A stretch of DNA of 64,000 nucleotides from the NCBI RefSeq assembly GCF_056746865.1, contig NZ_CM163382.1. One strand, written 5' to 3'. Under the pieces are notes generated by a model, which was given only the letters and a program-made list of their open reading frames with translations, ran no database searches and was not told the DNA's origin. The translations under genes were made by a program, and so were the position numbers. Positions 48,403-50,816 of this stretch are shown in pieces; the stretch's first letter is position 1, and each line of letters begins with the position of its first letter.

Positions 48403-49153
48403 ATGAAAAATCCCTATTTCCCTACCGCACTGGGGTTGTATTTTAATTACCTGGTGCATGGTATGGGCGTCATTTTGATGAGCCTGAATATGGCCTCGCT
48501 GGAGACGCTTTGGCAGACTAATGCCGCAGGCGTCTCAATAGTTATCTCATCGCTGGGTATTGGTCGATTAAGTGTCTTGCTTTTTGCAGGATTATTATCC
48601 GATCGCTTTGGTCGCCGCCCTTTTATCATGCTCGGGATGTGCTGCTATATGGCCTTCTTTTTTGGCATCCTGCACACCAATAACATTATTATCGCTTATG
48701 TTTTGGGCTTTCTGGCGGGAATGGCAAACAGTTTTCTCGATGCAGGCACATATCCCAGTTTGATGGAAGCTTTTCCACGCTCACCGGGGACAGCCAATAT
48801 TTTAATTAAAGCATTTGTTTCCAGCGGACAATTTTTGTTACCGCTAATCATTAGCCTGTTAGTGTGGGCTGAACTGTGGTTCGGTTGGTCCTTTATGATT
48901 GCTGCAGGCATTATGTTTATTAACGCTCTGTTTTTATACCGTTGTACGTTCCCACCCCATCCGGGTCGTCGCTTACCTGTCATAAAGAAAACCACCAGAT
49001 CTACGGAACATCGCTGTTCAATTATCGATTTAGCCAGTTATACCTTATATGGTTATATCTCAATGGCAACGTTTTATCTGGTTAGCCAGTGGCTGGCACA
49101 GTACGGACAATTTGTTGCAGGCATGTCATACACTATGTCGATCAAACTACTTA
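48403..49153 (+). pseudogene. ydiM: 5' fragment of MFS transporter gene ydiM, interrupted by IS5
   Basis: MFS N-terminal half; the reading frame runs into the IS5 left end at 49154 and terminates 23 nt inside it. Confidence 0.88.
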
Positions 49154-50348
49154 GGAAGGTGCGAACAAGTCCCTGATATGAGATCATGTTTGTCATCTGG
49201 AGCCATGGAACAGGGTTCATCATGAGTCATCAACTTACCTTCGCCGACAGTGAATTCAGCAGTAAGCGCCGTCAGACCAGAAAAGAGATTTTCTTGTCCC
49301 GCATGGAGCAGATTCTGCCATGGCAAAACATGGTGGAAGTCATCGAGCCGTTTTACCCCAAGGCTGGTAATGGCCGGCGACCTTATCCGCTGGAAACCAT
49401 GCTACGCATTCACTGCATGCAGCATTGGTACAACCTGAGCGATGGCGCGATGGAAGATGCTCTGTACGAAATCGCCTCCATGCGTCTGTTTGCCCGGTTA
49501 TCCCTGGATAGCGCCTTGCCTGACCGCACCACCATCATGAATTTCCGCCACCTGCTGGAGCAGCATCAACTGGCCCGCCAATTGTTCAAGACCATCAATC
49601 GCTGGCTGGCCGAAGCAGGCGTCATGATGACTCAAGGCACCTTGGTCGATGCCACCATCATTGAGGCACCCAGCTCGACCAAGAACAAAGAGCAGCAACG
49701 CGATCCGGAGATGCATCAGACCAAGAAAGGCAATCAATGGCACTTTGGCATGAAGGCCCACATTGGTGTCGATGCCAAGAGTGGCCTGACCCACAGCCTA
49801 GTCACCACCGCGGCCAACGAGCATGACCTCAATCAGCTGGGTAATCTGCTGCATGGAGAGGAGCAATTTGTCTCAGCCGATGCCGGCTACCAAGGGGCGC
49901 CACAGCGCGAGGAGCTGGCCGAGGTGGATGTGGACTGGCTGATCGCCGAGCGCCCCGGCAAGGTAAGAACCTTGAAACAGCATCCACGCAAGAACAAAAC
50001 GGCCATCAACATCGAATACATGAAAGCCAGCATCCGGGCCAAGGTGGAGCACCCATTTCGCATCATCAAGCGACAGTTCGGCTTCGTGAAAGCCAGATAC
50101 AAGGGGTTGCTGAAAAACGATAACCAACTGGCGATGTTATTCACGCTGGCCAACCTGTTTCGGGCGGACCAAATGATACGTCAGTGGGAGAGATCTCACT
50201 AAAAACTGGGGATAACGCCTTAAATGGCGAAGAAACGGTCTAAATAGGCTGATTCAAGGCATTTACGGGAGAAAAAATCGGCTCAAACATGAAGAAATGA
50301 AATGACTGAGTCAGCCGAGAAGAATTTCCCCGCTTATTCGCACCTTCC
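49154..50348 (+). mobile_element. Complete IS5 insertion sequence (1195 bp)
   Basis: Terminal inverted repeats GGAAGGTGCGAACAAG (49154-49169) and CTTATTCGCACCTTCC (50333-50348); 4-bp direct repeat CTTA at 49150-49153 and 50349-50352 (TTAG if boundaries shift by 1 nt); contains the transposase ORF. Confidence 0.95.
49222..50202 (+). CDS. insH: IS5 transposase InsH (DDE family)
   Basis: 326 aa from ATG at 49222 ([24 protein letters not shown]...), recognised as IS5 transposase. Confidence 0.95.
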
Positions 50349-50352
50349 CTTA

Positions 50353-50816
50353 GTATCTACACCGTGGGTTCGCTGCTTTGTGTATTTATTACCGCTCCAC
50401 TCATTCGTAATACCGTTCGCCCAACAACATTACTGATGCTGTACACCTTTATCTCATTTATTGCTCTGTTTACCGTCTGCCTGCATCCCACATTTTATGT
50501 GGTGATAATATTTGCTTTTGTCATTGGTTTTACCTCTGCTGGAGGTGTTGTGCAAATTGGCCTGACGTTAATGGCTGAACGTTTCCCCTATGCTAAAGGT
50601 AAAGCTACAGGGATCTATTACAGTGCGGGCAGTATTGCAACATTTACCATTCCGTTGATTACGGCTCATCTGTCCCAAAGAAGTATTGCCGATATTATGT
50701 GGTTCGATACCGCCATCGCTGCCATCGGCTTTTTACTGGCACTGTTTATCGGCTTACGCAGCCGCAAAGAAACGCGGCATCACTCGCTAAAGGAAAATGT
50801 CGCTCCGGGTGGGTAA
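50353..50816 (+). pseudogene. ydiM: 3' fragment of ydiM downstream of IS5
   Basis: Joining 48403..49153 to 50353..50816 gives a 1215-nt ORF (404 codons plus stop) encoding one 12-TM MFS transporter. Confidence 0.88.

Follow-up and report, generated by a model that had tools for sequence, protein, structure and literature searches.

We analysed a 64,000-nt stretch of an Escherichia coli chromosome (contig NZ_CM163382.1 of RefSeq assembly GCF_056746865.1), called the window below, in which the insertion sequence (IS) IS5 interrupts ydiM, a gene for a transporter of the major facilitator superfamily (MFS). The surrounding gene order, ydiK-rprA-ydiL-ydiM-ydiN-ydiB-aroD, is common to the window and to K-12 MG1655. 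All positions are window coordinates.

A complete IS5 inside ydiM

The element occupies positions 49154–50348 on the + strand and is a complete IS5 of 1195 bp. Inspection of its ends identifies the terminal inverted repeat GGAAGGTGCGAACAAG at the ins5A-promoter end (49154–49169) and the reverse complement of GGAAGGTGCGAATAAG at the 3′ end (50333–50348). The two match at 15 of 16 positions, the single mismatch is the one found in the MG1655 copy, and both ends agree in every base with the ends of MG1655 IS5A. A length of about 1195 bp and 16-bp terminal inverted repeats of the form GGAAGGTGCGAA(C/T)AAG, the marks of IS5 membership, are therefore both present. The ins5A transposase coding sequence (49222–50202, + strand, co-oriented with ydiM) is intact, with 326 codons plus stop and no internal stop. 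The NCBIfam IS5 transposase model NF033581 gives its product 365.7 bits, for a cutoff of 140, and a single substitution, K274 in place of R, separates the product from MG1655 InsH1. Over its whole length the element is identical to MG1655 IS5A at 1190 of 1195 nt, with 5 single-nucleotide polymorphisms (SNPs). The final 177 bp (50172–50348, + strand) correspond to the ‘IB’ segment of the IS5 3′ end, with its permanent bend and integration host factor (IHF) site; the position was derived from PMC2753651, and the function would be as described there by analogy. Ends, transposase, near-identity and a 4-bp duplication all place the element in the IS5 group of the IS5 family, and only the YTAR target preference of that group is missing. 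Neither a second IS5 nor any resistance gene was found in the 64-kb window. The MG1655 IS5A copy itself has no matching target duplication, its flanks being CTCC and ATAA.

The insertion divides ydiM into a 5′ fragment (48403–49153, + strand; codons 1–250 plus 1 nt), which is 100% identical to the gene of 118UI, a urine isolate from Mexico of sequence type ST69 and phylogroup D (PMC8900328), and a 3′ fragment without a start codon (50353–50816, + strand; nt 752–1215 including the stop), delimited by joining the open reading frame (ORF) and by the 118UI alignment. Joined, the fragments give 1215 nt and 404 codons with a sole, terminal stop, and the rebuilt gene is 100% identical to ydiM of 118UI. 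Its product has two Pfam MFS_1 matches, to residues 12–294 and 249–394 (7e-24 and 5e-11), and differs from K-12 YdiM (NP_416205.1, b1690) by 5 aa, the gene differing from that of MG1655 by 23 nt; judged by sequence, the interrupted gene is the ydiM orthologue of b1690. Simple sliding-window hydropathy on the rebuilt protein gave overlapping segments and no usable transmembrane count. In the interrupted gene the frame reads 7 codons into the IS, to a stop that ends at 49176, and the predicted product is 257 aa long (250 YdiM residues followed by RKVRTSP). With YdiM cut after residue 250, the transporter gene is inactivated. In K-12, deletion of ydiM makes 64Cu uptake slower and reduced and abolishes bo3 quinol-oxidase activity in strains without bd oxidases, and the growth defect of the deletion appears when bd oxidases are absent (PMC10588857). 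The strain analysed here would be expected to show a ydiM null phenotype like that of the K-12 deletion (PMC10588857), probably a mild one while bd oxidases are present.

Direct repeats of CTTA flank the element, at 49150–49153 (ydiM nt 748–751) on the left and, by inspection, at 50349–50352 on the right. The undisrupted site of 118UI reads ACTACTTAGTATC, and there the target CTTA is single. The first base of the IS is a G, which extends the actual repeat to five bases (CTTAG). IS5 duplicates 4 bp and has a strong, though not absolute, preference for YTAR (PMC5009759). CTTA does not fit this consensus, which is unusual for IS5: eleven other copies examined that have matched duplications are all at YTAR sites (CTAA, TTAA or TTAG), with unchanged element boundaries. 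The sequence contains a YTAR site, TTAG, one base further right (ydiM nt 749–752). It is present only through a SNP of this lineage, which reads CTTAG where K-12 reads CTCAG (T versus C), so that K-12 has no YTAR site at that position. On the simplest reading, the transposase would have engaged the overlapping TTAG (CTAA on the opposite strand) and cut one base off register. A canonical TTAG duplication was considered and rejected, since with the standard IS5 ends it needs three Gs on the left and no extra C on the right, and the sequence has two Gs and an extra C. The sole alternative, a 5-bp CTTAG duplication by an IS lacking its first G, is less parsimonious.

The intact canonical element, the target duplication and the seamlessly restored ORF together exclude a chance match. 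They also confirm the outline given in a preliminary description of this DNA, which had reported a complete 1195-bp IS5 at 49154–50348 with 16-bp inverted ends and an intact transposase, a 4-bp direct repeat of CTTA, and the splitting of the MFS transporter gene ydiM into fragments that reconstitute a 1215-nt, 404-codon ORF. Its statement that MG1655 has an intact ydiM without IS5 agrees with the MG1655 locus.

Host lineage and age of the insertion

By sequence comparison the chromosome background is ST69-like, of phylogroup D and uropathogen type. At least 25 genomes, with ydiM intact, are 100% identical to the window over the 25 kb upstream of IS5; for the 5 kb and 25 kb to its left, 100% identity is shared by dozens of genomes of clinical or environmental origin, again with ydiM intact, and most E. 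coli are at 95–99%. One otherwise identical genome, S1-CAM-04-C, spans 26,438 bp in two pieces over the 25,000-bp query, pointing to an insertion of about 1.4 kb within the equivalent of 24154–49153. We aligned the matching 63 kb of 118UI end to end with the window. The two are colinear over 62.8 kb and differ by 4 SNPs (23850, 37401, 55541 and 60498), and structurally they differ only by the IS5 and one extra copy of the 4-bp target. The SNP at 23850 changes position 4 of the second tRNA-Val(GAC) gene (23847–23923), which is C in the window and T in 118UI; the resulting C4-A69 acceptor-stem mismatch could be either a real variant or a sequencing error.

The colinearity with 118UI, with 4 SNPs and with IS5 as the only indel, indicates a recent and clean insertion. 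As in a simple insertion, the target was duplicated and the flanking DNA kept in full, and the event is young relative to the spread of the ST69-like clone. The preliminary description had called the insertion clean and recent, and the 118UI colinearity, restored ORF and target duplication support it in this. Its K-12 framing did not survive, the backbone being ST69-like phylogroup D. A K-12 origin is ruled out by the 23 nt that separate ydiM from that of MG1655 and by the many clinical genomes at 100% identity; for such a backbone, the alignment to MG1655, W3110, BW25113 and BL21 that had been proposed is not the informative comparison.

The insertion had also been described as strain-specific, and we found no other genome with the same junction among 5,426 complete RefSeq E. 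coli genomes. None of their records covers at least 80% of the left junction. The right-junction query is covered by 2 genomes, GMM076 and EECO1006, in each case as two joined pieces that represent insertions at other ydiM sites. The exact 36-nt junction has no match in GTDB representative genomes or JGI metagenome contigs, and the assembly index has no entry for the exact 257-aa truncated product. IS copies are a classic source of misassembly, and an assembler could in principle have misplaced IS5 into ydiM. Against this, both junctions are present, the ORF is restored exactly, and the 4 bp that are single in relatives are duplicated here, which a misjoin would not generate; the chance of such an artefact is negligible. 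We consider it very likely that an IS5 copy recently transposed into ydiM of an ST69-like chromosome, at the target CTTA, and knocked the gene out.

IS5 allele and candidate donor

The window IS5 carries T368, A584, A647, A865 and G1115. It is identical, at 1195 of 1195 positions, to the IS5 beside blaNDM-5 on IncX3 plasmids, with 0 differences from the copies of pNDM5_020031, pK516_NDM5, pNDM-5-SCLZ494 and pNDM5_IncX3. On these plasmids of about 46.1 kb (for example pNDM5_020031, 46,161 bp) the IS5 lies about 170 bp from blaNDM-5, within a remnant of the IS30-family element ISAba125, and an IS3000-dISAba125-IS5-blaNDM module is typical of IncX3 plasmids (PMC9485871). The IS5 of IncX3 blaNDM-1 plasmids is 1 base away from the window copy, at position 1115 (A1115). 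Six chromosomal IS5 copies from ST69-like genomes were compared, two of them from ydiM insertions, in GMM076 and EECO1006, and four taken singly from EC1, NMBU-W13E19, SCU-482 and KE40. All six have G584, G647 and C865, and so differ from the window allele at 3 positions. In EC1 and KE40 the IS5 adjoining lgoR is flanked by TTAG on both sides; in NMBU-W13E19 it has TTAG and CTAA flanks and a different downstream gene, which suggests that DNA between two IS5 copies was deleted or rearranged there.

The distribution of the allele was followed with a 91-bp stretch containing the diagnostic A584 and A647. This stretch is found exactly in 267 of 3,307 IS5-bearing E. coli records and in 574 of at least 5,000 PLSDB plasmids. 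In an evenly spaced sample of the exact-match plasmids, all seven are IncX3 or IncX3 hybrids with the IS5 beside blaNDM (4 NDM-5, 3 NDM-1). Among the sampled NDM-5 plasmids the IS5 is identical to that of the window in three of four; in the fourth, p399-4, one base is inserted near IS position 852 and the transposase coding sequence measures 982 nt. The 40 listed records with an identical element comprise 19 plasmids of about 46 kb, 3 other plasmids and 18 chromosomes, and for 14 of these chromosomes the strain's own NDM-5 plasmid of about 46 kb is also in the list. Only the nucleotide allele is diagnostic for the NDM-plasmid IS5. The transposase accession WP_000019402.1 was tried as a marker and discarded, because it is shared with IS5 copies at ydiM nt 992 that differ by 2–3 nt. 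Within the group of 300490, F11, HCM-25C-3 and PEC41, which shares an nt-992 insertion, three of the four copies encode WP_000019402.1; that of PEC41, 5 nt different, encodes a different protein.

The identity of the 1195-bp allele, set against the 3 differences in resident IS5 of ST69-like genomes, points to an IS5 beside blaNDM-5 on an IncX3 plasmid present in the strain as the donor, and on the sequence comparisons we somewhat favour this origin. The competing explanation, which retains an appreciable though smaller probability, is that the element came from a resident chromosomal copy or from a non-NDM plasmid, the match to IncX3-blaNDM-5 plasmids reflecting a widespread allele. IS5 prefers nearby sites for transposition (PMC5009759), and ST69-like genomes hold ample sources, with 8–19 query-matching places each, all of them IS5 save for roughly one per genome that matches the ydiM half of the query. 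A resident source fits poorly with the six sampled ST69-like copies, all of the other allele, with the lack of a second IS5 in the window, with the exclusively IncX3-blaNDM character of the seven sampled exact-allele plasmids, and with the origin of 14 of 18 allele-bearing chromosomes in strains that have an NDM-5 plasmid.

Several points weigh against our account, in addition to the atypical CTTA target. Four of the 18 listed chromosomes (W2-5, strain 165, WCHEC025943 and AR_0085) have no co-listed 46-kb plasmid, which favours a resident or non-NDM donor and implies that the allele also exists without the plasmid or persists after plasmid loss. The ST69-like comparison took one IS5 per genome from four relatives and the ydiM copy from two more, and another IS5 copy in those genomes could carry the window allele. 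The donor is proposed from a 64-kb chromosomal window, in which a plasmid cannot be seen. The expected ydiM phenotypes, for their part, derive from K-12 deletion mutants rather than from the source strain.

Movement of a plasmid-borne IS into the chromosome after plasmid acquisition has been described for IS1 of pOXA-48 (bioRxiv 10.1101/2024.03.01.582297). A literature search on IS5 moving from IncX3 plasmids into chromosomes found nothing specific. A broader proposal, that IS5 of IncX3 blaNDM plasmids seeds chromosomal insertions after plasmid entry and that the AT-rich ydiM is a preferred and possibly selected landing site, seems quite improbable to us at present.

Recurrence at the locus, downstream genes and relation to known systems

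A composite query made of both IS5 ends and ydiM was used to pick out the complete genomes where an IS5-family element lies within ydiM or next to it. In other genomes the rprA-ydiN region has received at least 8 independent insertions of IS5 or ISKpn26-like elements. Six of these are in + orientation, and none shares the insertion site of the window. The following positions are given as window equivalents. An IS5 of SCU-109 lies 3 bp upstream of the annotated rprA start (TTAG 47698–47701, +), where it should separate the small RNA gene from its promoter. The CTAA at 48390–48393, 10 bp upstream of the ydiM ATG, has been used in 3 events, all +: by an ISKpn26-like element 94% identical to the window IS5 in HCP5S3_I2 and LCP30S3_I5, by another (91%) in PSJ-12, and by IS5 in EECO1006, with an adjacent 251-bp deletion (48394–48644). 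GMM076 has IS5 at ydiM nt 518 (TTAA 48920–48923, +). The CTAA at ydiM nt 992–995 (50593–50596) has been used in 2 events, both − and both by IS5, one in ECCTRSRTH03 and one in 300490, F11, HCM-25C-3 and PEC41; the second counts as separate because its IS5 allele differs. The last insertion, of an ISKpn26-like element in 1916D18, falls between ydiM and ydiN, 163 bp before the ydiN ATG (CTAA 50876–50879, +). The four genomes of the 300490 group come from four countries and from human stool or urine, chicken meat and swine faeces, and as they share the insertion they probably represent one widespread lineage that inherited it. Their ydiM 5′ fragment is also annotated as frameshifted.

Insertions in ydiM have also been seen in the laboratory and are not confined to IS5. 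In two old mice colonised by an evolving K-12 strain, ydiM::IS5 was present at a frequency of 0.10 (PMC7518454), and coordinate conversion places that insertion at the nt-992 site. IS1 interrupts the gene in E41-1 and TUM14664, and ydiM is non-contiguous in 136 of 5,426 genomes. Loss of YdiM itself might on this evidence be advantageous in the gut or urinary tract, with IS5, found at four sites in the gene, as the most frequent route to a null; the mouse-gut result and the IS1 alleles speak for such an advantage. Yet the GC content of ydiM is low (0.449; window, 0.503) and its density of YTAR sites high (12.35 per kb; window, 8.31), so that plain target bias accounts for part of the recurrence. 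In addition, 97.5% of genomes keep the gene contiguous, and the two mice could have shared a mutant from the inoculum. We regard selection for YdiM loss as unlikely. A rough several-fold excess of ydiM insertions rests on guessed event numbers and is not to be relied on.

Downstream of the insertion lie ydiN (51043–52308, +), which encodes a paralogous MFS transporter and whose ATG is 694 bp past the IS5 end, then ydiB (52320–53186, +) and aroD (53217–53975, +). Homologues of ydiM and ydiN usually adjoin shikimate-pathway genes (PMC10588857). The preliminary description was right that these three genes follow in the orientation of the transposase; its suggestion that IS5 alters their expression finds no geometric support, given the 694 bp to the ydiN ATG and the mixed orientations of insertions elsewhere. 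Activating IS5 insertions at fucAO, flhDC and glpFK have the ins5A promoter distal, and those at glpFK and flhDC are about 100–170 bp from the transcription start (PMC2753651). The ‘IB’ bend/IHF segment activates glpFK from about 126 bp upstream of the promoter in a helical-phase-dependent manner (PMC2753651). In fucAO mutants, ins5A-promoter transcripts cross the entire IS5 into the downstream operon, and a fusion promoter with an upstream Crp site is the alternative to a promoter-proximal position (PMC2753651, PMC11894529). The window element has the orientation of these cases, with ins5A directed toward ydiN, and lacks their promoter-proximal position (−100 to −170). A promoter/terminator scan found no + strand terminator-like site at 50203–50348 or before ydiN, and no + strand promoter-like site between IS5 and ydiN (5 promoter-like sites in the scan, against 7.2 expected). 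Given the co-orientation and the lack of a + strand terminator-like site in the IS5 3′ end, some read-through from the ydiM and ins5A promoters is probable, and this transcription would read partly into the ydiM remnant. Any effect on ydiN-ydiB-aroD is likely to be small, and cis-activation of these genes is very unlikely. A weak sigma-S holoenzyme binding peak is reported inside ydiM (PMC5493296), upstream of the insertion point by coordinate conversion. If it marks a real ydiN promoter, IS5 now separates that promoter from ydiN.

It could still be proposed that the insertion was selected for changed expression of ydiN-ydiB-aroD (quinate/shikimate), through the IS5 3′ bend/IHF segment or through ins5A read-through. 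The activating orientation (PMC2753651), the capacity of transcription to traverse IS5 (PMC11894529), the stretch from IS5 to ydiN free of + strand terminator-like sites, and the + orientation of 6 of the 8 other insertions, including that of 1916D18 163 bp upstream of the ydiN ATG, are all compatible with it. The distance of 694 bp is hard to reconcile with a phase-dependent bend/IHF effect at about −126, two independent insertions at nt 992 have the opposite orientation, and a 6:2 split is no significant bias. We hold such selection to be highly doubtful. The ISKpn26-like element of 1916D18 is far nearer to the geometry of known IS5 activation than is the window copy; that genome also has an IS3-family element just upstream of ydiL.

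The element is the well-known IS5 and its effect an ordinary knockout, and only the insertion site and host lineage are new. Taken alone, one more IS5 knockout of a dispensable transporter is of small importance. The link to a plasmid allele and the recurrence of insertions at the locus are modest leads. The allele offers a cheap marker suggesting that the ST69-like strain analysed here has, or at some time had, an IncX3 blaNDM-5 plasmid, and a plasmid donor fits the emerging view that plasmid-borne IS elements mutate the host chromosome. If IncX3 plasmids did seed such copies, carriage of a carbapenemase plasmid would be traceable through the scar that IS5 copies of the identical allele leave, and the copper-linked, quinate/shikimate module ydiM-ydiN-ydiB-aroD would be reshaped by it. 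With at least 8 events and a mouse-gut experiment, the rprA-ydiN region is a convenient natural setting in which target bias and selection could be told apart. The knockout is also relevant to work on YdiM in copper uptake and bo3 oxidase function and to ydiB/aroD regulation in clinical lineages.

Comparison with known systems places the window copy among familiar elements. K-12 IS5A/insH1 (MG1655 273955–275149) shares the 1195-bp length, the terminal repeats, the 326-aa transposase and the IS5 habit of 4-bp duplication. It is another allele, by 5 SNPs; the ydiM site of the window is not occupied in K-12, and CTTA is outside YTAR. Closest in sequence is the IncX3 IS3000-dISAba125-IS5-blaNDM-5 module, whose IS5 is 100% identical over 1195 bp, but that copy is plasmid-borne, lies in the ISAba125 remnant and has a CTAA duplication, whereas the window copy is chromosomal. 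If the proposed donor is right, the closest parallel in process is IS1 of pOXA-48, where an IS of a carbapenemase plasmid likewise inactivates a chromosomal gene, though IS and plasmid are both different and, for the window copy, the plasmid is a candidate proposed from the IS5 allele. Other natural ydiM::IS5 alleles (GMM076, EECO1006, ECCTRSRTH03, the 300490 group and mouse-gut K-12) involve the same gene and the same element, and GMM076 and EECO1006 also share the ST69-like backbone and the orientation. They differ in site and in IS5 allele, and those at nt 992 are in the opposite orientation. The activating insertions at glpFK, flhDC, fucAO and bgl resemble the window copy in having the ins5A promoter distal and the 3′ bend/IHF end proximal; those known insertions are in regulatory regions or form a fusion promoter with an upstream Crp site, whereas the IS5 of the window interrupts a coding sequence and ends 694 bp short of the next start codon.

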